A stretch of DNA of 28,543 nt, from contig BTVJ01000094.1 in the NCBI GenBank assembly GCA_045863395.1, positions 1-28,543 on the forward strand. The letters run 5' to 3'. Shown here one piece after another: positions 13,403 through 28,235 of this stretch; positions within the stretch are counted from its first letter, which is position 1, and each line of letters opens with the position of its first letter. Origin of the DNA: Myxococcales bacterium (GTDB lineage: Bacteria > Myxococcota_A > UBA9042 > JABWCM01 > BTVJ01). Under the pieces are notes generated by a model, which ran no database searches, was not told the origin of the DNA, and saw only the letters and a list, made by a program, of their open reading frames with translations. Made by a program: the position numbers and the translations under genes.

Positions 13403-13544
13403 CAGCGCCCGTCCCCCAGCCACGGGGGGACGGAAGGCGGCACCAGCCCCAGGGTTGGGGCCGCCGACACGAACCCACGCTCGCCTCGCCATCGGAGGGT
13501 CCACCGGCCGCGCCCCAACGCAGCACCGCTGCACGGGAGACCGC

Positions 13545-16175
13545 ATGGCAAAGAAGATGCTCATCAACGTCGACGCGGACGAGAACCGCGTCGCGATCCT
13601 CGAGGACGGGCGCCTCGAGAACCTCGAGATCGAGACGAACCTCAACGAGCAGGTCAAGGGCAACATCTTCAAGGGTGTCGTCCACAAGGTGGAGCAGAGC
13701 CTCCAAGCCGCGTTCGTCGACTACGGGGTGGAGAAGCAGGGCTTCCTGCCCCTCGGAGAGATCCACCCGCGCTACTGGCCGAAGGACGCCGGCAGCAAGC
13801 CCACGATCCAGGACATCCTGCAGAACCGTCAGGAGCTGCTCGTCCAGGTCACCCGGGACGAGATCGGCAACAAGGGCGCCACCCTGACCACCTACGTGTC
13901 GCTTCCCGGGCGCTACCTGGTCCTGATCCCCGAGAGCGAGAAGACTGGCATCAGCCGCAAGCTCTCCGACGAGGAGCGCGCGCGCCTGAAAGAGCTGGTC
14001 ACGGATATGTCGCTGCCCGAGGGCTTCGGGGCGATCATCCGCACGGCCGGGACGGACCGGTCCCTGCCGGAGCTGCAGCTCGACCTGTCCTACCTGACGA
14101 AGGTCTGGGAGGCCATCGAGAGGCGCTTCAAGGAGCAGAAGGGCTCGGGGCTCGTCTATGAGGAGCGGAGCCTGGCGGTGCGCTTCATGCGCGACTACTT
14201 CGCCGACGACATGGAGGAGGTCTGGATCGACGATCCGGAGGGCCACAAGGAGCTGCTGGAGTTCGTCAACCTGATCATGCCGCAGCACGCCAGCCGGGTG
14301 AAGCTCTACCAGGGGCGGGTGCCGCTGTTCATCAAGCAGGGGGTCGAGGACCAGATCGAGGACGTGTTCGCGCGCAAGGTGGAGCTGCCGAGCGGCGGGT
14401 CCATCGTGCTCGACAGCACGGAGGCGCTGGTCGCCATCGACGTGAACAGCGGGCGGGTCAAGGGGGAGGACATCGAGGAGACCGCCTTTACGACCAACAT
14501 GGAGGCCGCGCGCGAGATCGCGCGGCAGGTGGTCATCCGGGACCTGGGCGGGCTGGTCGTCATCGACTTCATCGACATGAAGGACCGCAAGCGCATGCGC
14601 CAGGTGGAGCAGGCGCTGCGGGAGGCGTTCCGCAACGACAAGGCCCGGCGCAAGTTCTCGCGCATCAGCGAGTTCGGCCTCCTCGAGATGACCCGGCAGC
14701 GCATGAAGAGCACGCTGACGAGGACCAGCTTCGAGCGCTGCGACCACTGTGGCGGCCAGGGGCTCGTCCGGTCGGCCGAGTCGGCGGGCATGTACCTCCT
14801 GCGGCGCATCCGGGAGATCTCGGCCCGGGGGAGCGTCCACCAGGTGATCGTGCGCGCACCGATCCCCGTCGCCAACTTCATGCTGAACCGCAAGCGCCCG
14901 GAGCTGCAGGCGCTGGAGATGGACCAGAAGACCCTGGTCGAGGTCTGGGGAGACACGGATCTGCCGCCCAACCAGGCAGTGCTGGAGTCGGTCCACAAGC
15001 GTGGCAAGGGCGCGCCCCAGCGGGTCACGCAGACCGTGGACCTGGTCAAGGCCGAGATCGTGCGCCGTGACGAGGAGAGCCTGAAGCGTGGCATCCTGAC
15101 ACGGGAGCCCGGGCGGAACATCGACTTCCAGAGCCTCTACAAGGAGGTCATCGACGAGCACGGTCCCGCCGAGGTCCCCGCTCCGGCCCCCGTGGCCGCG
15201 TCGGCCCCGCCTCCCGTGGCGCCACCGCCTGCGTACACTCCCCAGCGGCACGCCGCGCCCCCTCCAGAGCCTCCCAAGGAGCGGCGGTTCTCGTGGTGGC
15301 GCAAGCTGTTCGGCGCCGCGGAGGAGCCACCGACCCCACACGTGCCGGCGCCCCAGACCCCAAGCGCGCACGCGCCACAGCATGGGGCGCCGAGCGCACA
15401 CGCGCCGCAGCACGGGGCTCCGAGCGCGCACGGTCAGGCAGGTCCGGCACAGCCTCGGCTCACCACGCCGCTCCACGGGGCGGGCGCACCAGGCCGACCG
15501 CATGCAGGTAGAACACGGGACGCCGCTGAGACTACGGGCCAGACGCGGGCGTCGGCGCCGCGGTCGACGGCACCGCGGGGCGCAGCTCCCGGACAGCGAC
15601 CCTCGGAGAAGTCAGAGAAGCCCGAGGACGAGGCGAAGGGCCCGACCAAGCGCCGCCGCAGGCGCCGGCGGTCGCGCTCCGAGGGCACGCAGCCGGAGAG
15701 CACCACCGCGCCGTTGCTGGACGACCTCGACGACGAGATCGGGGACGACGACGAGGGCCCGGAGGACACGGGTGAGCAGGAGCAGGGCGGCGTCGACGGG
15801 CCGCGCAAGTCCCGCCGGCGCAGGGGTCGAGGGCGGGGCAAGGCCCAAGGAGAGCGCGCAGCGGGAGCCGGCGAGGGAGCGGGGCCAGAGGATGGCGGCC
15901 CCCCGGAGCCCCGGCGTGGGGCCGAAGGTGCAGAGCGCCCTCCACGCGCGCCAGCACACGAAGGGACCGCACCGGCGCACACCGCGGTGAGCGCTCCCAA
16001 CGCTCCCGCACCGGCCAGCCAGGCGCCGCGGCCTGTGCCGCCGCCCCTGCCGCCGCTGCCGCAGCACCCGGCTCCGTCGACGAGCCGGTCGGCTGAGCCC
16101 GCCACCGCTGACAGCCGGTGGATCGTCGACCTGCGGACCCCGTCGCCCAAGCCCACGGACCGGGGCGAGGAGTAG
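13545..16175 (+). CDS. rne: Ribonuclease E (Rne/Rng family) with long disordered C-terminal scaffold (876 aa)
   Basis: [75 protein letters not shown] and Zn-link CDHC; GGGAGA RBS. Confidence 0.95.
15361..15432 (+). repeat. 30-bp tandem repeat in rne ([10 protein letters not shown], about 2.4 copies)
   Basis: Units at 15361-15390 and 15391-15420, partial at 15421-15432. Confidence 0.85.
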
Positions 16176-16179
16176 GGCC

Positions 16180-17454
16180 ATGTTGGACATGAAGCTGGTC
16201 ACGGACTCGCCAGACCTGGTTCGTCGCAAGCTCGCCGAGCGGCGCTCGGAGGTGAACCTGGAGGCCATCCTGGCCCTCAACGAGGAGCGCAAGCGCTTCA
16301 TCCACCTCTACGACGACACGCGGGTCCGGCAGCGGGCGCTGTCGGAGGCGTTCAAGAAGAAGGGCGCGCCACAGGCGGAGCTGGACGCCGCGCGCGCGGA
16401 GCTCCAGGGCATGTCGGCACGCCTCAAGGAGTACGAGGTCGCTCGGGACGAGGCGCAAGCCGCCATGGAGGCGTCCCTGCTGCTGCTCCCGAACCTGCAC
16501 CACGACAGCGTCCCCGTGGGAGCGAGCGCCGAGGACAACGTCGAGGTGCGCCGCTCCGGCGACCCAGTGCCCCTCGGCTTCGACGCGCGGCCCCATGACG
16601 AGCTGGGCGCGAGCCTCGGGATCCTCGACATGGAGGCGGGCGCAAAGATCAGCGGCGCCCGCTTCGCCCTGTACCGCGGGGCGGGAGCGCGGCTGGAGCG
16701 GGCGCTCGCGGCGTTCATGCTCGACCTGCACACCGGGGAGCACGGCTACACGGAGGTGCTGACCCCGTTCCTGGTGAAGCGCGAGAGCATGGTCGGCACG
16801 GGTCAGCTCCCGAAGTTCGAGGAGGAGGCATTCAAGACGGAGGACGACTACTTCCTCATCCCGACCTCCGAGGTGTCGGTGACCAACATCCATCGGGATG
16901 AGATCCTCGACGGGGAGCGCCTGCCCATCAAGTACTCCGCCTGGTCCCCCTGCTTCCGGCGCGAGGCGGGCAGCTACGGGCGCGACACCCGGGGCCTCAT
17001 CCGCCTCCACCAGTTCCAGAAGGTGGAGATGGTCAAGCTCACGACCCCCGAGACCAGCTACGCCGAGCTGGAGAGCCTGGTCGGAAACGCCGAGCACGTC
17101 CTCAGCCTGCTCGGCCTCACCCACCGGACCATGCTGCTGTGCTCCGGCGACCTGGGCTTCGGGGCCGCCAAGTGCTACGACGTGGAGGTGTGGGCTCCCG
17201 GCCAGAACCGCTGGGTGGAGATCTCGAGCTGCAGCAACTGCGAAGACTTCCAGGCGCGGCGCGCAAGCATCCGCTACCGCCCGGACCCCGCAGCCCGCCC
17301 GCGCTTCGTCCACACGCTCAACGGCTCGGGACTTGCCGTCGGGCGCACCATCGTCGCCATCCTCGAGGCGTTTCAGCAGGCGGACGGCTCGGTCCGCATC
17401 CCGGACGTGCTACGTCCCTACATGGGCGGCATGGAGGCCATCCGACGTCCGTGA
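16180..17454 (+). CDS. serS: Serine--tRNA ligase
   Basis: [53 protein letters not shown] and [21 protein letters not shown] lies in the last rne codons. Confidence 0.98.
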
Positions 17455-17500
17455 CAGGGCCGCCGGCGGGGTCGCGGACGCCAGGCCGCCCAGCAGTACG

Positions 17501-17542
17501 TTGAAAAAAGGGGTTGCACATCGACGACCACGCCACTATAGT
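17501..17542 (+). promoter_or_regulatory. Strong sigma70 promoter of the tRNA cluster with UP-like A tract
   Basis: TTGAAAAAAG, then TTGCAC (17514-17519)-17 nt-TATAGT (17537-17542), then a GC-rich discriminator. Confidence 0.8.
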
Positions 17543-17584
17543 TGGCCGCCGATGTGCCGACCGGCCCATCGAATGAGCTGAAAA

Positions 17585-17597
17585 GCTCTTTGAAAAC
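17585..17597 (+). promoter_or_regulatory. boxA (Nus antitermination) element
   Basis: GCTCTTTGAAAAC between the promoter and first tRNA, matching the rrn boxA pattern. Confidence 0.75.
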
Positions 17598-17645
17598 AGA
17601 GAGATTGCGGAGTCGGTGCGGTAGCACGGGCGTAAGCGCGACCAC

Positions 17646-17730
17646 GGAGGGGTGGCCGAGTGGTTTAAGGCAGCGGTCTTGAAAACCGCCGTGCTGAGAG
17701 GCACCGTGGGTTCGAATCCCACCTCCTCCG
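17646..17730 (+). tRNA. tRNA-Ser(TGA)
   Basis: GGAGGGG acceptor strand, GCGGT-CT TGA AA-ACCGC, long variable arm, GGTTCGAATCC; followed by CCG. Confidence 0.96.
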
Positions 17731-17815
17731 CCGAGAACCCGTGACGCTCAGGATCCCGCGAGCGTCACTGGAAGCAGCTCATGGCTCGGGCTCGTCCCCA
17801 CCTTGGGCTTTCCCT

Positions 17816-17910
17816 GGAGAGATGGCCGAGTCGGCCGAAGGCGCTCGCCTGCTAAGCGAGTATAGTGGCATAAACCGCTATCGAGGGTTCGAATCCCTCT
17901 CTCTCCGCCA
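17816..17910 (+). tRNA. tRNA-Ser(GCT)
   Basis: CTCGC-CT GCT AA-GCGAG, long variable arm, encoded CCA. Confidence 0.96.
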
Positions 17911-17911
17911 C

Positions 17912-17988
17912 GCGCCCGTAGCTCAGCTGGATAGAGCGATGGTCTACGGAACCATAGGTCAGAGGTTCGAATCCTCTCGGGCGTACCA
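17912..17988 (+). tRNA. tRNA-Arg(ACG)
   Basis: ATGGT-CT ACG GA-ACCAT anticodon arm; encoded CCA. Confidence 0.96.
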
Positions 17989-18013
17989 AAACTCACCTCG
18001 CGGCGGGAGCCCC

Positions 18014-18514
18014 ATGTCCGACCCAGGCGCACGCTGGCAGGATGCGATGCGGGAGGCGCTGGCCCTGGCCAGGACCGCGGAGGAGCAGGGCGAGGTCCCT
18101 GTCGGCGCGGTGGTGATCGACCCGGCTGGGCACGTCATCGGTCGCGGAGCCAACCGGCGGGAGCTGGACGCAGACCCGACGGCTCACGCCGAGATGGTCG
18201 CGCTTCGACAGGCCGCAAAGGTGCGGGGCAGTTGGCGTCTGAACGGCTGTACGCTGGTCGTCACGCTGGAGCCCTGCCCCATGTGCGCAGGTGCGCTGGT
18301 GGCGAGCCGCCTCGAGCGGGTCGTCTTTGGGTGCCGGGACCCCAAAGGGGGCGCGGTCACGACGCTCTACGCGGTTCCCCAGGATCCGCGGCTCAACCAC
18401 CGCGTCGAGGTGGAGGAGGGAGTGCTCGCCGACGCATGTTCGGCGGTGCTCCAAGGGTTCTTTGCCGACCTTCGCGAACAACGGAGAGCTGGCCGAGTGG
18501 CCGAAGGCGCCTGA
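18014..18514 (+). CDS. tadA: tRNA adenosine(34) deaminase (166 aa)
   Basis: GEVPVGAVV, DPTAHAE, TLEPCPMCAGA, DPKGGA, RLNHR, LQGFF; GGGAG RBS. The stop codon lies inside tRNA-Ser(CGA). Confidence 0.95.
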   Translation: MSDPGARWQDAMREALALARTAEEQGEVPVGAVVIDPAGHVIGRGANRRELDADPTAHAEMVALRQAAKVRGSWRLNGCTLVVTLEPCPMCAGALVASRLERVVFGCRDPKGGAVTTLYAVPQDPRLNHRVEVEEGVLADACSAVLQGFFADLREQRRAGRVAEGA

Positions 18515-18570
18515 CTCGAAATCAGGTGTACCGACAGGTACCGGGGGTTCGAATCCCTCGCTCTCCGCCA
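18483..18570 (+). tRNA. tRNA-Ser(CGA)
   Basis: GGAGAGC/GCTCTCC acceptor stem, CCTGA-CT CGA AA-TCAGG, variable arm GTACC/GGTAC, encoded CCA. Confidence 0.95.
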
Positions 18571-18647
18571 TGGGACGACCGGAGGCAGCCTGGCGCCGGT
18601 CGTCGGATGCTTCGAGGCCGGGAACGCTCCTCTCGGAGCGTCGTTAC

Positions 18648-18735
18648 GGAGAGATGACCGAGCGGCCGAAGGTGCACGACTGGAAATCGTGTGTGCTCTA
18701 ACACGGCACCAAGGGTTCGAATCCCTTTCTCTCCG
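18648..18735 (+). tRNA. tRNA-Ser(GGA)
   Basis: CACGA-CT GGA AA-TCGTG, long variable arm; followed by CCG. Confidence 0.96.
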
Positions 18736-18857
18736 CCGCGCGGCGGGAGCACGCGAAGGGGGGCGGGAGCGCCTGCCGCACCGCCCTCCAGCGCCAGCGC
18801 CGCGAGCGACCTCCTCCGGGAAGGTCGCGCATCCGGCTCCGAACGTGGAGCCGGTTT

Positions 18858-18960
18858 GTGATAGTCGGGGTCTGTGCAATGGCAAAGCCGTGAACTCCGC
18901 CAGGTCCGGGAGGAAGCAACGGTAGCAGCGATGTCATGTGCGGCAGGCCTCGGCTATCGC
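18858..18960 (+). ncRNA. ffs: Signal recognition particle RNA (small 4.5S type)
   Basis: Domain IV core CAGGTCC-GGGA-GGAAGCAAC; closing stem GTGATAGTCGGGGTCTG / CAGGCCTCGGCTATCGC; located upstream of dnaX. Ends approximate. Confidence 0.92.
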
Positions 18961-19128
18961 CCCCATACTTCATGTCGTGGAAGGCGTTACGCGCCCCTGA
19001 GGACGCTCGGCAGCGCGCGTTGGAGGACCGACACGACGCAGCGACGTCCCCTCGACGGCTGAGGCGGCACGAGCACCCGTCGGGAGGCGCGCCCTGGCGC
19101 CCTTCTCGCCGCAACGACGGAAGAGCCC

Positions 19129-20976
19129 ATGTCCTACCTCGTACTCGCACGCAAGTGGCGCCCGACGGGCTTCGACGAGGTCATCGGGCAGGATCACGTC
19201 ACCCGCACCCTGTCGAACGCCATCCGCATGGATCGGGTGGCGCACGCCTTCCTGTTCACCGGGGCCCGCGGGGTCGGCAAGACGTCGACGGCCAGGATCC
19301 TCGCCAAGGCGCTGAACTGCCAGGCGGGACCCACGCCCGAGCCCTGCGGCGAGTGCAACGCCTGCCGCGAGATCCCCCTGGGGACGGCCATCGACGTGCT
19401 GGAGATCGACGGCGCCTCCAACCGCGGCATCGGCGAGATCCGGGAGCTGCGCGAGGGCATCAAATACGCGCCATCCAGGGATCGCTACAAGATCTACATC
19501 ATCGACGAGGTCCACATGCTGACCTCGGAGGCCTTCAACGCCCTGCTCAAGACCCTGGAAGAGCCCCCCGCCCACGTGAAGTTCATCTTCGCGACGACGG
19601 AGCCCCAGAAGATCCCCGTCACCATCCTCTCCCGGTGCCAGCGCTTCGACTTCAAGCGGGTGCCAGCGAGCGCGCTGACGGCGCGGCTCGTCGACATCCT
19701 GAAGGCCGAGGACGTCCACATGGACGAGGCCGCGCTGCACATCATCGCGCGCGAGAGCGAGGGGAGCATGCGCGACGCCATGTCCCTGCTCGACCGGGTG
19801 ATCTCCTTCGCTGGAAATGACGTCACCGGGGACCAGATCGCCGAGATCCTCGGCGTGGCGGACCGCCGCTGGCTCCACGACCTGGTCGACGCGGTGCTGG
19901 GGCAGGACGCGGCGACGGCCCTGGCCATCGTCAACGACGTGCACCAGTACGGCTTCGACATCCAGCACTTCGCGGCCGAGCTGGCGCGCTTCCTGCGGGA
20001 CCTGCTGGTCATCAGGGTGAGCGGCGCGGGCGAGCAGCTCACCGACCTGTCGCAGAGCGAGTACCAGACCCTGGTGCAGCTCGGCGGGCGGCGGTCTGCC
20101 GACGACCTCCTGTCCATCTTTCGCGTGGCCCTGCGCGCCGCCGAGGAGGTCGCGCACTCGCGCTTCCCCAAGCTCACCCTGGAGATGGCGGTCATCCGCA
20201 TGGCGGGGCTCCGGCCGCTGCAGCCCCTCGACGAGCTGCTCGGCAGGCTGGAGGAGCTCGAGCGGAAGCTGCCGGACGGCTTCGTACTCCCGTCGGGGAG
20301 CGTGCAGCCGCCGCGGGCGGAGCTGATGACGCCGCGAGGGCCGGCGCCCTCCCCTGCCCCGCGCCCTTCGCTGCGCCTCGTGCAACAAGAGGAGCAGCTT
20401 GCGCCACCCGCGCAGGTGCAGGCGCTCACCCCGCCCGCGCCGACGCGGCCCGAGGTGCCTCCCACGCCTCCCCGGGTCGAGGCGCCCCGGGTCGAGGCGC
20501 CCCGGGTCGAGGCGCCGGCGCCGGTCCAAGGGCACCTCCTTGCTCCTGCGTCGCTGCGCCCCTTCGAGGCGTGGCTCGCGGAGGCGGATCCCCCCCTGGC
20601 GGGCCAGCTCGCTCAGGCCGCACTCTCGACCGACGCCGGCGAGCTCCTCGTGGCGTTCAAGGACGACCTGTTCCTCTCGTCGTTCCAGCACGGATCGGCC
20701 GCGTGGGAGAGGCTCGCCGCAAGAGTTCAGCAGTTCTTCGGCGACGGGACCCGCCCGCGGGTGTGCCGGCTCGACAATGGGGCAGAGACCACCTGGGATC
20801 GCCTCGAACGGGAGCGAGTGGCCCGAATCGCGAGGCGGGAAGCGGAGGCACGGCAGCACCCTGCGGTCGCCGCCCTCGTCGCGGCCTTCGAGGGGACGGT
20901 GCGGAGGGTCGTGGTGCACGACGACTTGAAGGGCCTCGGCGCTGCCGAGGCCACGGACGAAGCGGAGACATCGTGA
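19129..20976 (+). CDS. dnaX: DNA polymerase III subunit gamma/tau
   Basis: MSYLVLARKWRP, Walker A GARGVGKT, Zn module PCGECNAC, IIDEVH, TILSRCQRF, GSMRDA. Confidence 0.98.
   Translation: MSYLVLARKWRPTGFDEVIGQDHVTRTLSNAIRMDRVAHAFLFTGARGVGKTSTARILAKALNCQAGPTPEPCGECNACREIPLGTAIDVLEIDGASNRGIGEIRELREGIKYAPSRDRYKIYIIDEVHMLTSEAFNALLKTLEEPPAHVKFIFATTEPQKIPVTILSRCQRFDFKRVPASALTARLVDILKAEDVHMDEAALHIIARESEGSMRDAMSLLDRVISFAGNDVTGDQIAEILGVADRRWLHDLVDAVLGQDAATALAIVNDVHQYGFDIQHFAAELARFLRDLLVIRVSGAGEQLTDLSQSEYQTLVQLGGRRSADDLLSIFRVALRAAEEVAHSRFPKLTLEMAVIRMAGLRPLQPLDELLGRLEELERKLPDGFVLPSGSVQPPRAELMTPRGPAPSPAPRPSLRLVQQEEQLAPPAQVQALTPPAPTRPEVPPTPPRVEAPRVEAPRVEAPAPVQGHLLAPASLRPFEAWLAEADPPLAGQLAQAALSTDAGELLVAFKDDLFLSSFQHGSAAWERLAARVQQFFGDGTRPRVCRLDNGAETTWDRLERERVARIARREAEARQHPAVAALVAAFEGTVRRVVVHDDLKGLGAAEATDEAETS
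20470..20514 (+). repeat. 15-bp exact tandem repeat x3 (PRVEA) in the DnaX linker
   Basis: CCCCGGGTCGAGGCG three times. Confidence 0.92.
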
Positions 20977-21970: not shown

Positions 21971-22077
21971 GCGGCGTGTTCGAGTCGCGCCGAGGTCCTG
22001 CTGCCCTCCGAGGAGGAGCAAGTCCAGGCAAGCGTGCGCTCCAGGGGCGGGCACCCGCCCGGACGAGGCTGTCGCGG

Positions 22078-25000
22078 ATGAAGTCGGGCCGATCCAAGGC
22101 AAGCGCGGCGTGGCTGCTCCTGGCCGGGGCCCTCGCCTCGCTGGCGGGCTGCGCGGAGGACGTGGTCGGCGGTGGCGGCGCTGACACACAGGACGCCGTG
22201 GTGGACGGCGGCAGCTCCGAGGACGCGCCCGACGTCGCAGAGCCCCCGGTCGACGCGCCCACCGCGCCGGACACGACGGACACCGCGCCAGACGTCCCCA
22301 GCGGCGACCTCGCCGCCTTCGGCGAGCCCTGCACGGCCGACACCGACTGCGAGAGCGGCCGCTGCGTCCCCGCCGAGGCCGGCTCCGTCTGTACCCAAGC
22401 GTGCCTCGACAAGTGCCCCGCAGGCTGGACCTGCCGCTTCGATCCGGCGCGGTGGTCCCAGCCGAGCGATGGCTACGTCTGCGTCCCGCTCTACACGAAC
22501 CTCTGCCGCCCCTGCCACGACGACGCGGACTGCCGCCCCTATGGCCTGATGCCTGGTGACGCGGTCTGCGTCGCCAGCGGAGACGCCGGCAGCTTCTGCG
22601 GCGCTCCCTGCGATGACCAGGGCGGGTGCCCCGCCGGCTACGCTTGTGGTGACGCGGGGGGCACGGCCCAGTGCCTGCGTACCGAGGGCGAGTGTCCGTG
22701 CAACGGCGCCGCCATCGCGGATGCGGCGACCACGAGCTGTTCCAGGACCAACGACCATGGGACCTGCAAAGGCGAGCGCTCGTGCGAACCCGGCGGCTTG
22801 ACGCCATGCAGTGCCAAGGCCGCCGCCATCGAGAGCTGCAACGGCAAGGACGACGACTGCGACGGCGTGGTCGATGACGACATCCCGGCGACGCCATGCA
22901 AGGTCAAGAGCCCCTTCGGGGAGTGCCCGGGGACGGTGGTGTGCGTCGGCGGCAAGACGGAGTGCACCGGGCCGGAAGCCGTGGAGGAGGCCTGCAACGG
23001 GCTGGACGACGACTGCGACGGCAAGACCGACGAGGGCTTCCCGGACTCGGACGGCGATGCGAAGCCCGACTGCTTGGAGACCGACGGCGACGGCGACGGC
23101 GTGGATGACGAGGACGACAACTGCCCGGAGGTCGCCAACGCTCTGCAAGAGGACCTGGATGGGGACGGCGTGGGCGACGCCTGCGACGCCGACGATGACG
23201 GCGATGGCGCCACGGACGGCGACGACTGCGCCCCACTGGATCCGGCCATCCACCCGGGCGCCAGCGAGGCCTGCAACGGCATGGACGACGACTGCGACGG
23301 CGCCACGGACGAGAACTACCTGGGGCTCGGGGATCCCTGCGACGGCCCGGACGCCGACCAGTGCGCCAGCGGAACGGTGACCTGCAGGAGCGACGGCACC
23401 GGGATCGAGTGCGCCGGCGACGACGGCGGCGCTGGCAAGCCCGAGCTCTGCAACGGGAAGGACGACGACTGCGACGGCCTGGTCGACGAGCTGTTCCCGG
23501 ACCTGGGCAAGCCCTGCGACGGTCCGGATACGGACCAGTGCGCCAACGGCATGGTGGTGTGTGCGGCAACGGGAGAGGCCACCACGTGCGGTCCGGAGTC
23601 GAAAGTCGACCTGAACGATGTGTGCAATGGCCTGGACGACGACTGCGACGGCCAGACCGACGAGGACTACCCTACACTGGGCCAGGCCTGCGACGGACCG
23701 GACGCGGACGAGTGCCTCAATGGCGCGCTCGCGTGCACTCCGGACGGCACGGCGGTCGTGTGCGCAGACGAGGTGGAGCTGTCCGAGGAGCTGTGCGACG
23801 GCAAGGACAACGACTGCGACGGCAAGGTGGACGAGGACTTCCCCCTGCTCGGCCTGCCTTGTGACGGCCCGGACTCCGACAAGTGCAAGAACGGCAAGGT
23901 GATCTGCGCGGCCGACGGCAAGACCACCCAGTGCTCGGCGGAGTTCCCGACGGACGTCGCCGAGGTCTGCAACGGCAAGGACGACGACTGCGACGGCGCC
24001 ACCGACGAGGGGTTCGTTGGTCTCGGCGAGCCCTGCGACGGCCCCGACGCAGACCTCTGCGAGAACGGCGTGAAGACCTGCTCGGCCGATGGAGCGGCCG
24101 TGGTCTGCGGCGTGGAGTCGCCCGAGGGCCTCGTGGAGCTCTGCAACGGCAAGGACGACGACTGCGACGGTGAGACCGACGAGGGGTTCCTTGGCCTTGG
24201 CGGGCCCTGCGACGGACCCGACGCTGACCAGTGCGCCAATGGGACCACGATCTGCGCGGCAGGGGGGGCTGGCACGACGTGCGCCGAGACCATCGAGGAC
24301 ATCGCCGAGGCCTGCAACGGGGTGGACGACGACTGCGACGGCGCCGTGGACGAGGACTTCCCGGGCCTCGGCCTGGCCTGCGACGGCCCCGACGAGGACG
24401 AGTGCATGAACGGCCTCCTGACCTGCACGGCGGACGGCTCCGCGACGGCGTGCACGGGGGAGGGGGGCGGCGTCGTCGAGATCTGCGACGGCAAGGACAA
24501 TGACTGCGACGGGCTCGTGGACGAAGGCTACCCGGGGCTCGGGGAGCCCTGCGATGGCCCCGACGAGGACGAGTGCCCCGGCGGCCTCGTCGCCTGCAGC
24601 GCCGCGGGCGACGGCGTGACCTGCGCGGAGCCTGGGACCGGGTACATCGAGCTGTGCAACGGCCTCGACGACGACTGCGACGGCGCCCTGGATGAAGGCT
24701 ACGACGGCCTCGGCGAGCCTTGTGACGGGCCGGACAACGACCAGTGCCCGAATGGGATCCGGGTGTGCGCGCCAAGCGGCCTCGGGATCGTGTGCGGGCC
24801 GGAGGCGCCTGCGGACATCCCCGAGCTGTGCAATGGAGTCGACGACGACTGCGACGGAGAGATCGACGAGGGCTACGTGGGGCTTGGGCTCGCCTGCGAC
24901 GGCCCGGACGGGGACCTGTGCGAGAACGGGGTGCGGGTGTGCACGCCCGGTGGGCTCGGGGTCACCTGCGGAGTGGAGAGCCCCCAGGGGCTCGTGGAGC

Positions 25001-25743
25001 TGTGCAACGGCCTCGACGACGACTGCGACGGCGAGACGGACGAGGAGTGGCCCACCCTCGGCGCACCCTGCGACGGGCCAGACGGAGACTCGTGCGCGAA
25101 CGGCGTGGTGGTGTGCAGCGCCGACGGTGGCGCTGCGGTGTGCGGGCCCGAGTCCCCGTCAGGGCTGGTCGATCTGTGCAACGGCCTCGACGACGACTGC
25201 GACGGCCTGATAGACGAGGGCTACCCGGGTGTGGGAGCGCCCTGCGATGGCCCCGACCTCGACCTGTGCAAGAGCGGGGTCGGCGCCTGCGCCGCAGACG
25301 GTCTGAGCGTCATCTGCCCCTTCGAGGCCGTCGTGGACCTCGTCGAGGTGTGCAACGGGCTCGACGACGACTGCGACGGCGCGACGGACGAGAGCTTCCT
25401 GCTCCTGGGGGATGCCTGCGACGGCCCGGACGAGGACGACTGCCTCGACGGGACGTGGGCCTGCACCGCCGATGGCGCGGGCCTGGAGTGCACGGGAGAG
25501 GGAGGTTCGACCATCGAGGTGTGCGACGGGAAGGACAACGACTGCGACGGCGAGGTGGACGAAGGGTGCAACCCGACGCGGGTCATGACCACGTTCGGGG
25601 GCGCGGCCCTCGTCGGGACGAGCGGGGGACTGCACGTGACGGCGGGCGCGTGCCTGCCACAGATCAGCGCGAGCGAGGGCCCCTCGGGAGGGGCGGTGTA
25701 TCACGTGAAGCTGGGCCTCTACGCGACGACGGTGGGCCCGTGA
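22078..25743 (+). CDS. Large Cys/Asp-rich lipoprotein with putative metal-binding (MopE-related) repeats and thrombospondin type-3-like repeats (1221 aa)
   Basis: WLLLAGALASLAG-C lipobox; 16 copies of C(N/D)GxD(D/N)DCDG; DxDGDG...DNCP...QEDLDGDGVGDACD segment; short beta-rich C-terminal domain. Confidence 0.9.
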   Translation: MKSGRSKASAAWLLLAGALASLAGCAEDVVGGGGADTQDAVVDGGSSEDAPDVAEPPVDAPTAPDTTDTAPDVPSGDLAAFGEPCTADTDCESGRCVPAEAGSVCTQACLDKCPAGWTCRFDPARWSQPSDGYVCVPLYTNLCRPCHDDADCRPYGLMPGDAVCVASGDAGSFCGAPCDDQGGCPAGYACGDAGGTAQCLRTEGECPCNGAAIADAATTSCSRTNDHGTCKGERSCEPGGLTPCSAKAAAIESCNGKDDDCDGVVDDDIPATPCKVKSPFGECPGTVVCVGGKTECTGPEAVEEACNGLDDDCDGKTDEGFPDSDGDAKPDCLETDGDGDGVDDEDDNCPEVANALQEDLDGDGVGDACDADDDGDGATDGDDCAPLDPAIHPGASEACNGMDDDCDGATDENYLGLGDPCDGPDADQCASGTVTCRSDGTGIECAGDDGGAGKPELCNGKDDDCDGLVDELFPDLGKPCDGPDTDQCANGMVVCAATGEATTCGPESKVDLNDVCNGLDDDCDGQTDEDYPTLGQACDGPDADECLNGALACTPDGTAVVCADEVELSEELCDGKDNDCDGKVDEDFPLLGLPCDGPDSDKCKNGKVICAADGKTTQCSAEFPTDVAEVCNGKDDDCDGATDEGFVGLGEPCDGPDADLCENGVKTCSADGAAVVCGVESPEGLVELCNGKDDDCDGETDEGFLGLGGPCDGPDADQCANGTTICAAGGAGTTCAETIEDIAEACNGVDDDCDGAVDEDFPGLGLACDGPDEDECMNGLLTCTADGSATACTGEGGGVVEICDGKDNDCDGLVDEGYPGLGEPCDGPDEDECPGGLVACSAAGDGVTCAEPGTGYIELCNGLDDDCDGALDEGYDGLGEPCDGPDNDQCPNGIRVCAPSGLGIVCGPEAPADIPELCNGVDDDCDGEIDEGYVGLGLACDGPDGDLCENGVRVCTPGGLGVTCGVESPQGLVELCNGLDDDCDGETDEEWPTLGAPCDGPDGDSCANGVVVCSADGGAAVCGPESPSGLVDLCNGLDDDCDGLIDEGYPGVGAPCDGPDLDLCKSGVGACAADGLSVICPFEAVVDLVEVCNGLDDDCDGATDESFLLLGDACDGPDEDDCLDGTWACTADGAGLECTGEGGSTIEVCDGKDNDCDGEVDEGCNPTRVMTTFGGAALVGTSGGLHVTAGACLPQISASEGPSGGAVYHVKLGLYATTVGP
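23265..25569 (+). repeat. Array of ~57-59 aa coding repeats: ExCNGxDDDCDGxxDExxxxLGxxCDGPDxDxCxxGxxxCxxxGxxxxC
   Basis: 13 full units plus a terminal half unit, read from the translation. Confidence 0.9.
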
Positions 25744-25790
25744 GAGTTCGGCCCCCCACGCCCGGGTGGCCCCAGCGAGGAGTGAGCGAC

Positions 25791-28235
25791 ATGAACGAGC
25801 GACGGTGGAAGAGCTGGGGCGCCCTGAGCGCCGTGTGCGCCTTGGCCCTGGCCCTCGGAGGCCCTGCGGCGGCAGCGGTGCCGCAGGTGATGAACGCCCA
25901 AGGCGTCCTGCGCACGGCGGGCGGACAGGTGGTGGATGGGAGCTACGCGCTCACCTTCTCGCTCTACGGACAGCAAGCGGGCGGGATCCCCCTGTGGACG
26001 GAGACCGTCGGTGGCGTTCCGGTCAAGAGCGGCCTGTTCAGCGTCCTGCTGGGCAACGGCACTCCGATCCCCGCGGCCCTCTTCGCGCAGTCCGACTCCC
26101 TGTGGCTGGCCATCCAGGTCGAAGACGACGTGGAGCTGCCCCGGGAGCGCCTGGTGACCCAGGCCTTCGCCTTCGAGGCACAGCACGCAGCCACGGCGAC
26201 CTTGGCGGACACGGCGACGACCGCCCAGGGGCTCTCCTGCTCCGGCTGCGTCGACGGCGTCGCCATCGCGGCGGGCAGCATCGACGGCGCCAAGATCGCC
26301 GCAGGCGCGGTGGGCTCGGCCCAGATCGCAGACGGGTCGGTGAGCCCGAGCGACGTGTCCTTCAACTACGCGGGCGGCACCACCAAGGGCGGCGCCGCGA
26401 CCAACGTGGAGTGCGTCGGGTGCATCGAGGCCGGCGAGGTCAGCTTCGGGTACGCGGGCAGCGCCACGGCAGGCGGAGCGGCCAGCGACGTCGCATGTAC
26501 GGGCTGCGTGTCCGCGGCAGAGCTGGACTTCGCGGCGGTGACGCAGACGGAGCTGGCGACGGCGATCGCGAACATCTACATCCCGCAGGTGACCCTGGAG
26601 AGCCTCGGCTGCTCCAACGGACAGGTGGCAGAGGTGGTCGGCGGGACCTGGGCGTGCGCCAACAAGCCCCAGGGCACGGTGCCGACCGCCAAGTGCGACG
26701 GGGAGTACGAGGCGCTCCAATGGGACGGCACGTCGTACAAGTGCAAGCAGGTCCTGGCGACCGGCGCCAGCGGCGGCCTGGCCAAGGGCTTCGAGCAGAA
26801 GGACTCGTGGGGCTACACGTGGGACGGCCTGGAGCGCCAGTCGGCCACGTGGGCGGTCGCTGACGCGGCTTGCAAGGCCAAGGGTGGGCGCCTGCCGACC
26901 CTCACGGAGCTCTACCGGGTGAGCGGAGCGGGGCTCTCCGAGGTCGGCAACACCTACGAGACCAACTACCTGTGGACGCGCACACAGTGGGCGCCAGCGC
27001 AGCACGGGCGGGTGCGCCTGACGGACGGCGCCACCGGCGGCCTCGCGGACGACACGGCGAGCGCCTACCGCTGCGTGTGGCCGAACAACACGCTGGGCTA
27101 CTTCGCGGGCAACCACTGCTACGGCCCCCCCGGCGCCGAGTGCTGGACCGACAGCGGCGAGGGCAAGCGCATGCACGTGGACAAGTACGAGCGGCCTGTC
27201 GCGACCTACGTGGCGGCGACCGACGAGTGCAACTTCTACCACGCCCACGTGCCGACGACCCTCGACTTCGCGGAGAACGTCACCGCGGGCACCGGCCTGC
27301 CGAACGGCAGCAACGCGTGGGTCTGGACCAGCGACGCGAGCCGCTACGACCACGCCAACGTCGTGCGATGGACCGGCTCGCAGCCCGCCAGCTTCGACGG
27401 CACCTACAGCACCTGGCAGAGCTACGCCAACAAGTCCGGCAACACCTACAACTTCCGCTGCATCGGCGTGAACTACGACGCGGGCGCCCACCCGAACACC
27501 ATCCTCAACGAGCAGGTGGCCAAGACCACCTACGTCAAGGGCGAGAAGCTCGACATGGGGCTCACCGCCTTCGCCGTGGCGGCCAGCGCGTGCTTCGAGA
27601 AGGGCGGCCACATGGCCATGCAGCGGGACATGATGGAGCTGGTGCGCGACGGCCTGCCCAACGGCACGAACAGCCTGCTCTGGACGGCGGACACCAGCAG
27701 CGCGACGAACACCCAGGTGGTCCGGTGGACGGGCATCGACCCCTCCTACACCGACTACTACTCGACCTACGCGACGTGGAACAACCGCAACGGGAGCCTG
27801 GCCTACCGCTGCGTGTACTACCCGCTCGACACGGACTACGCTGGTCCCACGGGCGGCAAGTGCGTCAGCGACTCCGACTGCTTCACCGTGCAGAAGGGAG
27901 GCACCACGAAGATCAAGATGTGGGCGGACAACTTCGACCGGAGCCCCCTCACCTACATCGGCGCCGTGCGGGCGTGCAACGACGAGGGCGGCCACCTGGC
28001 GTCTGCCCGGGACCTGACCGAGCTGGCGCGGTCCGGCCTCGCCAATGGCTCCAACAACTGGCTGTGGACCGCGGATGCCGTGGACGGGTCGGGTGTGCCC
28101 ACCATCCGCGTGCTGATCATGCGGTGGCTCAACGTGGACACGGCGTTCAACGCGCTCAGCGCCACCTACGCCACGGACTCGAACAAGACGGGGACCCGCC
28201 CCTACCGCTGCGTCTGGACCAACGAGCTGCGCTAG
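25791..28235 (+). CDS. Secreted fibre/adhesin-like protein with CxGC motifs and four tandem C-type-lectin-like domains (814 aa)
   Basis: GAGGAG RBS; Sec signal ending AAAA-VP; N-domain QGVL...LTFSLY...LWTE...GLFSVLLG; four repeats of AxxxC...(RLPT-like)...WT...(Y/F)RC. Confidence 0.85.
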   Translation: MNERRWKSWGALSAVCALALALGGPAAAAVPQVMNAQGVLRTAGGQVVDGSYALTFSLYGQQAGGIPLWTETVGGVPVKSGLFSVLLGNGTPIPAALFAQSDSLWLAIQVEDDVELPRERLVTQAFAFEAQHAATATLADTATTAQGLSCSGCVDGVAIAAGSIDGAKIAAGAVGSAQIADGSVSPSDVSFNYAGGTTKGGAATNVECVGCIEAGEVSFGYAGSATAGGAASDVACTGCVSAAELDFAAVTQTELATAIANIYIPQVTLESLGCSNGQVAEVVGGTWACANKPQGTVPTAKCDGEYEALQWDGTSYKCKQVLATGASGGLAKGFEQKDSWGYTWDGLERQSATWAVADAACKAKGGRLPTLTELYRVSGAGLSEVGNTYETNYLWTRTQWAPAQHGRVRLTDGATGGLADDTASAYRCVWPNNTLGYFAGNHCYGPPGAECWTDSGEGKRMHVDKYERPVATYVAATDECNFYHAHVPTTLDFAENVTAGTGLPNGSNAWVWTSDASRYDHANVVRWTGSQPASFDGTYSTWQSYANKSGNTYNFRCIGVNYDAGAHPNTILNEQVAKTTYVKGEKLDMGLTAFAVAASACFEKGGHMAMQRDMMELVRDGLPNGTNSLLWTADTSSATNTQVVRWTGIDPSYTDYYSTYATWNNRNGSLAYRCVYYPLDTDYAGPTGGKCVSDSDCFTVQKGGTTKIKMWADNFDRSPLTYIGAVRACNDEGGHLASARDLTELARSGLANGSNNWLWTADAVDGSGVPTIRVLIMRWLNVDTAFNALSATYATDSNKTGTRPYRCVWTNELR

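Follow-up and report, generated by a model that had tools for sequence, protein, structure and literature searches.

The final 32 nt of the tadA gene described here are also the 5' part of an intact tRNA-Ser(CGA) gene. This overlap is most probably a side effect of close gene packing that the cell tolerates, and not a feedback switch. With a probability of about 0.68, it reflects near-neutral erosion of a spacer, a process likely recurring in an old tRNA-tadA operon and tolerated mainly if the tadA frame meets an early stop codon within the tRNA. By the window we mean the whole stretch of DNA that was analysed (28,543 nt), and positions are given in its coordinates.

The tadA locus

All genes of the locus are on the + strand, in the order serS, sigma70-like site, tRNA-Ser(TGA), tRNA-Ser(GCT), tRNA-Arg(ACG), tadA, tRNA-Ser(CGA), tRNA-Ser(GGA), SRP RNA, dnaX, ybaB/ebfC and recR. 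The upstream neighbour serS (16180..17454) is an ORF matching TIGR00414 with 506.9 bits. It is followed by a sigma70-like promoter site (17515..17542), a consensus match and the likely start of the tRNA/tadA transcript, which is the sole such site in 17400-19200 (1 found, 0.1 expected in shuffles). The tRNA genes, tRNA-Ser(TGA) (17646..17732), tRNA-Ser(GCT) (17816..17910), tRNA-Arg(ACG) (17912..17988), tRNA-Ser(CGA) (18483..18570) and tRNA-Ser(GGA) (18648..18737), were all called by ARAGORN and matched by Rfam RF00005. Then come a weak terminator-like hairpin (18833..18854; 1 found, 0.9 expected), the SRP RNA gene ffs (18863..18958; RF00169, 58.5 bits) and the downstream neighbour dnaX (19129..20976), with ybaB/ebfC and recR behind it. 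In the consensus scan no terminator-like site was found in the tRNA/tadA cluster ahead of 18833, and the one sigma70-like site lies upstream; both agree with the proposal that tadA is part of an apparent single stable-RNA transcription unit.

Four tRNA-Ser isoacceptor genes were called in the genome, and they all lie in a single cluster (17646-18737) beside serS. Upstream of the tRNA/tadA cluster an RNase E/G gene (13455-16175, +) directly adjoins serS, ending 4 nt ahead of it, and a GC-rich hairpin without a T-tract is found at 18574-18609, between tRNA-Ser(CGA) and tRNA-Ser(GGA).

The tadA gene (18014..18514) encodes a tRNA adenosine(34) deaminase of 166 aa and is the sole full-length copy in the genome by tblastn. 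The protein matches NF008113 with 170.7 bits (cut-off 150), the HAE and PCxxC zinc motifs are visible in its translation, and its matches to TadA proteins in the PDB have E-values down to 7.5e-47. A later start at 18047 is possible (P0002, 155 aa); we preferred 18014, as the nearest homologues reach at least to this point. With this start, the ATG (18014-18016) lies 25 nt past the encoded CCA of tRNA-Arg(ACG), as the original prediction had it. This tRNA is the known substrate of TadA and has a single copy among the ARAGORN calls of the genome. At 7 of 63 loci of the class the position equivalent to residue 1 of tadA lies within tRNA-Arg(ACG), 6-15 nt from its 3' end, as estimated from alignment offsets only.

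At the other end of the gene, the stop codon TGA (18512..18514) is the sole in-frame stop in 18400-18660 and occupies positions 30-32 of the tRNA-Ser(CGA) gene, in the 5' strand of the anticodon stem. Part of codon 157, codons 158 to 166 and the stop thus make up the 5' strand of the acceptor stem, the D-arm and the 5' strand of the anticodon stem. That the last 32 nt of tadA (18483..18514) belong to the tRNA is confirmed, with one correction to the original prediction: the first Arg codon of the tail (18482-18484), which it had placed in the tRNA, has only two of its three bases there. The tRNA itself is intact, as claimed. It was called by ARAGORN, has an encoded CCA, is the sole Ser(CGA) among the ARAGORN calls of the genome, and scores 56.9 bits on RF00005 (cut-off 29), compared with 55.8-67.5 bits for its four neighbours. 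In a minimum free energy fold of 18440-18620 the acceptor, anticodon and T stems were retained, but the stability was no greater than that of shuffled sequences (z -1.14).

Validity of the junction

An error near 18470-18482 had been named as a possible cause of the missing stop, and the window does come from a 186-contig assembly. The junction is, however, spanned by one contig from each of four studies (X1, 17908-19400; X3, 17978-19236; X5, 18250-18696; X7, 18319-18696). These contigs have no gaps and no change at the junction, and differ from the window by at most one other letter, 18440 T>G. This substitution, a Ser-to-Ala change 43 nt upstream of the tRNA, is the sole variant inside tadA in the four bridging contigs. 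Two further runs from two of the same studies (X2 and X10) agree with the junction as well, homologues at 79% and 68% identity share the same tail, and the same 32-nt overlap is present in nine other genomes. A sequencing or assembly error is thereby ruled out for practical purposes. Of the eight runs compared, all of them consisting of contigs, six are labelled as RNA; their contigs are either long flat pieces that are possibly DNA-derived (X1, X2, X3, X10) or short partial pieces (X19, X20).

No other credible case of a coding sequence ending in a real tRNA was found in the genome of the window, using a crude codon model. Five other coding sequences end 26-55 nt before a tRNA, and all keep their own stops. 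A second apparent overlap (contig C1, tRNA-Leu GAG, 34 nt) was rejected as a false ARAGORN call having no Rfam tRNA match and no CCA; the remaining ARAGORN calls within coding sequences were discounted collectively as probably false.

The C-terminal tail

Between the conserved FF motif of the window protein and the tRNA there are 19 nt, which puts the start of the tRNA near the position of the own stop in many relatives. Many TadA proteins of relatives end 4-9 codons after this motif, and the predicted RNase P cut falls 6 codons after it. The Staphylococcus aureus enzyme (2b3j) aligns up to residue 158 of the window protein. Residues 1-156, which would remain after the predicted cut, are therefore a core of normal length: they are as long as the whole TadA of many relatives, they keep the entire deaminase core, and loss of the tail itself would cost little.

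Among the 120 homologue matches listed, four have a tRNA-type tail. Two of these are the window gene's own forms and the other two are the nearest outside relatives, P0003 (79% identity) and P0004 (68%), the latter with a longer in-frame linker before the tail. P0121, from the same 90% cluster as the window protein, has such a tail too. The overlap is thus retained in the three closest outside proteins, down to 68% protein identity, where the tails of P0121, P0003 and P0004 were read from proteins and not from DNA. For annotation, we advise treating such C-termini as translated tRNA and keeping both gene calls.

Distribution among relatives

The original prediction had suggested measuring the overlap across related genomes, and three sets of loci were used for this. 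The first comprises every tadA locus found in the class (95, from 107 genomes). The second comes from a phylum sample of 151 genomes, where the 30 with the best scores, a non-random choice, gave 28 new loci. The third consists of the 80 top-ranking loci out of 598 from a scan across phyla. The overlap counts cover only loci with a tRNA-Ser called at most 300 nt downstream, which excluded 21/95, 3/28 and 61/80 loci, respectively. Counted in this way, tadA overlaps the downstream tRNA-Ser at 21 of 118 loci: 14/74 in the class, 4/25 in other classes and 3/19 across phyla, the last being one each in Veillonellaceae, Thermodesulfobacteriota and Singulisphaera records. The other 97 loci keep their own stop before the tRNA-Ser in the same operon context.

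The overlap is 32 nt long in ten cases, 10 nt in four, and 1, 22, 24, 33, 47, 111 and 222 nt in one case each. The overlapped tRNA is mostly Ser(CGA); it is Ser(GGA) in three cases, all in family f8. Loci of this family (e.g. L025, L028) have no upstream tRNAs and carry Ser(GGA) and then Ser(CGA) after tadA, swapped relative to the window. In the two longest overlaps, L188 (222 nt) and L024 (111 nt), the tadA frame crosses the whole of tRNA-Ser(CGA), a nested tRNA as in selB/selC; each comes from a single assembly not checked against reads. At L194, L195, L201, L072 and L108 the tadA stop adjoins the tRNA, with a gap of 0 or 1 nt or a single base in common. Cleavage by RNase P at these loci would give an mRNA with its stop codon right at the 3' end.

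The nearest upstream tRNA is tRNA-Arg(ACG) at 63 of the 95 class loci and 21 of the 28 other-class loci, and tadA is clamped between it and tRNA-Ser at 48/95 and 18/28, respectively. On this comparison, the clamped layout is ancestral and the overlap is patchy. Both states occur within families f2, f4, f5, f8, f10, f16, f24 and f44 and within genus g5, where two of three loci overlap. In a tree of the TadA core (99 rows, 140 columns), the 18 overlapped rows imply no fewer than 13 changes of state; 43 of its 93 inner branches lack resolution, gain and loss are indistinguishable in it, and the labels were not compared with shuffles. Separate origins of the 32-nt overlaps are favoured, since their linkers differ, with 7 to 43 nt between FF motif and tRNA.

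Spacer length and reading frame

For the 113 of 118 loci in which the FF motif was located, overlap follows the distance from this motif to the tRNA: 8/9 loci overlap at less than 30 nt, 11/38 at 30-59 nt, 1/28 at 60-99 nt and 0/38 at 100 nt or more. Such a trend is expected if the spacer erodes together with its stop, and part of it is forced, since a stop can hardly fit into a very short spacer. In addition, 16 of the 97 own-stop loci end 0-10 nt before the tRNA, showing a general pull to tight packing that could itself be selected.

In the window, the three frames that enter tRNA-Ser(CGA) meet stops at 32, 175 and 219 nt, and only the first of these stops lies inside the tRNA. Of the 20 overlaps of at least 10 nt, 19 offer a frame that reaches a stop in the first 50 nt, and 18 of these 19 use one. 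When cases are collapsed by family and length, 13 of 14 lineages do so, compared with 6.7 expected under random frames (P 2.7e-4); when all 32-nt cases are taken as one event, the figure is 7/8 versus 4.0 (P 0.027, and 0.083 at a 35-nt cut-off). The cut-off was chosen after the data had been seen, and 35, 50 and 60 nt were all run. Loci without overlap, used as a control, show little such bias (52/91, 45.7 expected). A stop at some point in a tRNA is expected by chance; the choice of frame across relatives exceeds chance.

This bias indirectly supports the view that the stop within the tRNA is used, and makes it likely that the borrowed stop is under purifying selection. It also suggests that ribosomes enter the pre-tRNA and terminate there, because the frame would be irrelevant if all messages were cut before translation. 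The constraint has exceptions in L024 and L188, which read through the whole tRNA. As far as sequence comparison goes, the bias fits selection against long protein tails and selection against ribosomes crossing the tRNA indistinguishably.

Decoding of CGA

At the position originally given, 18494..18496, the overlap contains an in-frame CGA codon, which corresponds to D-arm bases 12-14 of the tRNA gene. The original prediction noted that this codon is normally read by the ICG tRNA and saw in it a speculative feedback loop. In such an autoregulatory loop the codon would sense I34 on tRNA-Arg, so that TadA activity would set ribosome pausing over the tRNA and hence its own synthesis. Each of the ten 32-nt overlaps has the CGA in frame, and decoding of CGA is impaired in Bacillus subtilis when I34 is lost (PMC10454642). 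Yet the codon is fixed by the D-arm and is in frame in none of the ten other overlaps of at least 10 nt (first 38 nt), and tadA has an earlier CGA at 18206. A sensing codon would need decoding that depends on the enzyme's own modification, but the genome encodes a canonical tRNA-Arg(UCG) (Rfam, 68.6 bits) which would read CGA without TadA. Decoding of CGA need not depend on TadA here, and we regard the loop as largely refuted and very improbable.

The tRNA-Arg(UCG) gene is located in a five-tRNA cluster on genome contig C7 (33663-33739; L207:466-540). In the CGN decoding set it lies beside tRNA-Arg(ACG), tRNA-Arg(CCG) and tadA, which are elsewhere in the genome. The exact pattern of this tRNA is present in 63 of the 107 class genomes. 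Of the 14 with an overlap 7 have it, and of the 7 with the 32-nt form 6 have it, where misses in incomplete genomes do not show absence. The pattern was found in 0 of 20 genomes of family f8, and the CGN decoding set therefore differs between families. A pair of ACG and UCG tRNA-Arg is known from other bacteria (PMC3711424).

Interpretation of the overlap

We propose that the spacer between tadA and tRNA-Ser(CGA) was eroded, taking the gene's own stop with it. The tRNA/tadA cluster would be one transcript, and ribosomes moving on the precursor ahead of tRNA folding and cutting would terminate at the borrowed TGA, giving the 166-aa TadA. RNase P cuts at the first base of a tRNA, and its cut at 18482/18483 would leave a non-stop mRNA consisting of codons 1-156 and one base. 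The cut message may then be tagged and cleared by tmRNA/SmpB, or an ArfB-like factor may release an active enzyme of normal length. Rescue of non-stop ribosomes by tmRNA/SmpB or ArfB is established (PMC3985003). RNase P RNA, tmRNA and SmpB, on which the original prediction relied, are all encoded in the genome, and a third ORF with a GGQ domain has ArfB as its best NCBIfam match (66.1 bits, below the cut-off of 100). Overall, the tadA message would serve for a shorter time, a tolerated cost that is presumably small enough to drift and not a selected control circuit.

Some results count against neutrality. The tails of P0121, P0003 and P0004 indicate that the overlap has been held long within this lineage. 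The rate of 21/118 is far above the 250 overlaps in 115,660 t(m)RNAs of a genome-wide survey (PMC4131195), the denominator of which includes tRNAs without a coding sequence just upstream. Furthermore, tadA is the sole credible overlap in the window's genome, in which the five other coding sequences ahead of tRNAs keep their stops. These points would also fit the overlap having been selected as a limiter, in which tRNA processing strips the stop, which would curb the TadA output of a strong stable-RNA promoter and prevent off-target editing of mRNA. The overlap is frequent and recurrent at the tadA locus and retained in this lineage; overexpression of TadA raises mRNA editing in A. baylyi, with 433 sites (PMC12255301), and editing also increases in S. 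pyogenes with excess TadA (PMC11472039); and the same model has been proposed for selB/selC (PMC8124441). Against it, within the same operon context 97 of 118 loci have a stop of their own, both states occur among sister genera and within one genus, spacer length predicts overlap, the cut product retains the whole deaminase core, and plasmid overexpression in S. pyogenes gave only a handful of new sites (PMC12255301). The original suggestion that the overlap exists to limit TadA is not borne out, since own stops persist within the same families and one genus and the overlap tracks erosion of the spacer. Because of the retention in the lineage, the high rate at the locus, tadA being the sole credible overlap in the genome, the near-abutting stops and the rise in editing with excess TadA, we still leave the limiter a small share, as an outsider among the readings. 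The same low standing is given to its fuller form, a repeatedly evolved, processing-gated limiter in which a borrowed early stop, RNase P and trans-translation would cap TadA per transcript and make the capacity for A-to-I editing follow the pace of tRNA maturation. Any regulatory effect of the overlap is, on these comparisons, probably minor.

Alternatively, the cost may fall on the tRNA and not on tadA, if ribosomes hinder the folding and processing of tRNA-Ser(CGA). The overlap would then be tolerated because tRNA-Ser(CGA), being partly redundant with tRNA-Ser(UGA), is of little importance, and the frame bias would reflect selection against ribosomes crossing the whole tRNA. By the wobble rule a U34 tRNA-Ser can read UCG, the frame bias fits this reading equally well, and most overlaps involve Ser(CGA). 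But tRNA-Ser(CGA) is an intact, sole-copy, CCA-encoded tRNA scoring like its neighbours, TCG is common in the genome (13.6 per 1000 codons), and the three overlaps in family f8 are with Ser(GGA). We consider a cost on the tRNA unlikely, slightly more so than the limiter, and retain spacer erosion as the preferred reading.

Relation to known systems

Same-strand overlaps of an upstream coding sequence with a t(m)RNA gene have been described as candidates for non-stop mRNAs (Hudson, Lau and Williams 2014, PMC4131195), with smpB/ssrA in Carsonella and an FtsW/RodA-family gene with tRNA-Ile in Helicobacter as examples (PMC4131195). The window gene is of this kind, being a Pfam-positive coding sequence with its stop in a valid same-strand tRNA gene. 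As in that class, a functional coding sequence ends within the tRNA and 5' maturation is predicted to leave a non-stop mRNA (PMC4131195). Unlike the top cases reported there, which are few events among close relatives (PMC4131195), the tadA overlap is found in many separate lineages and with varied lengths. The name tadA has no match in the main text of that paper (PMC4131195).

The selB ORF ends in or spans the gene for tRNA-Sec (selC), with a partial overlap in Dyella/Luteibacter and in a Nitrospirae lineage (Mukai 2021, PMC8124441). Like tadA, selB is a translation-related gene that takes its stop from inside a tRNA, has close relatives with their own stop, and has had the same model of processing versus translation proposed for it (PMC8124441). 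SelB, however, overlaps its own ligand tRNA, which provides a rationale for balance (PMC8124441). The tadA gene overlaps tRNA-Ser (CGA or GGA), which is not its substrate, and has its substrate tRNA-Arg(ACG) upstream. Conservation throughout a clade, as for selB/selC, is not seen either: the overlap is found at 14/74 loci of the class and is mixed within families and one genus.

In arfA, RNase III makes a non-stop mRNA and trans-translation controls it (PMC3985003, PMC4131195). The likeness lies in an RNase cut inside the coding sequence, predicted in the case of tadA, which gives a non-stop mRNA whose truncated product can be active (PMC3985003, PMC4131195). In contrast to the conserved, tested and rescue-tied circuit of arfA, there is nothing that connects TadA with rescue capacity, and most relatives lack the overlap.

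The non-stop-mRNA model for overlaps of coding sequences with tRNAs has already been put forward as a proposal (PMC4131195, PMC8124441). No description of the tadA/tRNA overlap itself was found in a literature search by title or start of abstract, covering few subscription journals and no supplements. The most useful new point is the frame bias, as comparative evidence that ribosomes enter and terminate within a pre-tRNA. With many natural pairs of close relatives with and without overlap, the tadA/tRNA-Ser locus is a convenient test case for RNase P and translation sharing one precursor.

Mixed operons of tRNA and mRNA are known, for example thrU-tyrU-glyT-thrT-tufB of E. coli, which the locus resembles in having a protein gene co-located with tRNAs. 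In Bacillus subtilis, serS also lies ahead of tadA (yaaJ). The gene order there is yaaJ-scr-dnaX-yaaK-recR (PMC10454642), and in both organisms tadA is followed by the SRP RNA gene, dnaX, ybaB/yaaK and recR. The window differs from the B. subtilis order and the tufB operon in that tadA is clamped by tRNA-Arg(ACG) and tRNA-Ser and has lost its own stop.

Away from this locus, the window encodes a multiheme cytochrome of the MtrC/MtrF/OmcA type (84-2300, +) and a large protein with many MopE-type metal-binding repeats (21976-25743, +), which is followed by a protein with C-type lectin and link-domain-like repeats (25766-28235, +).
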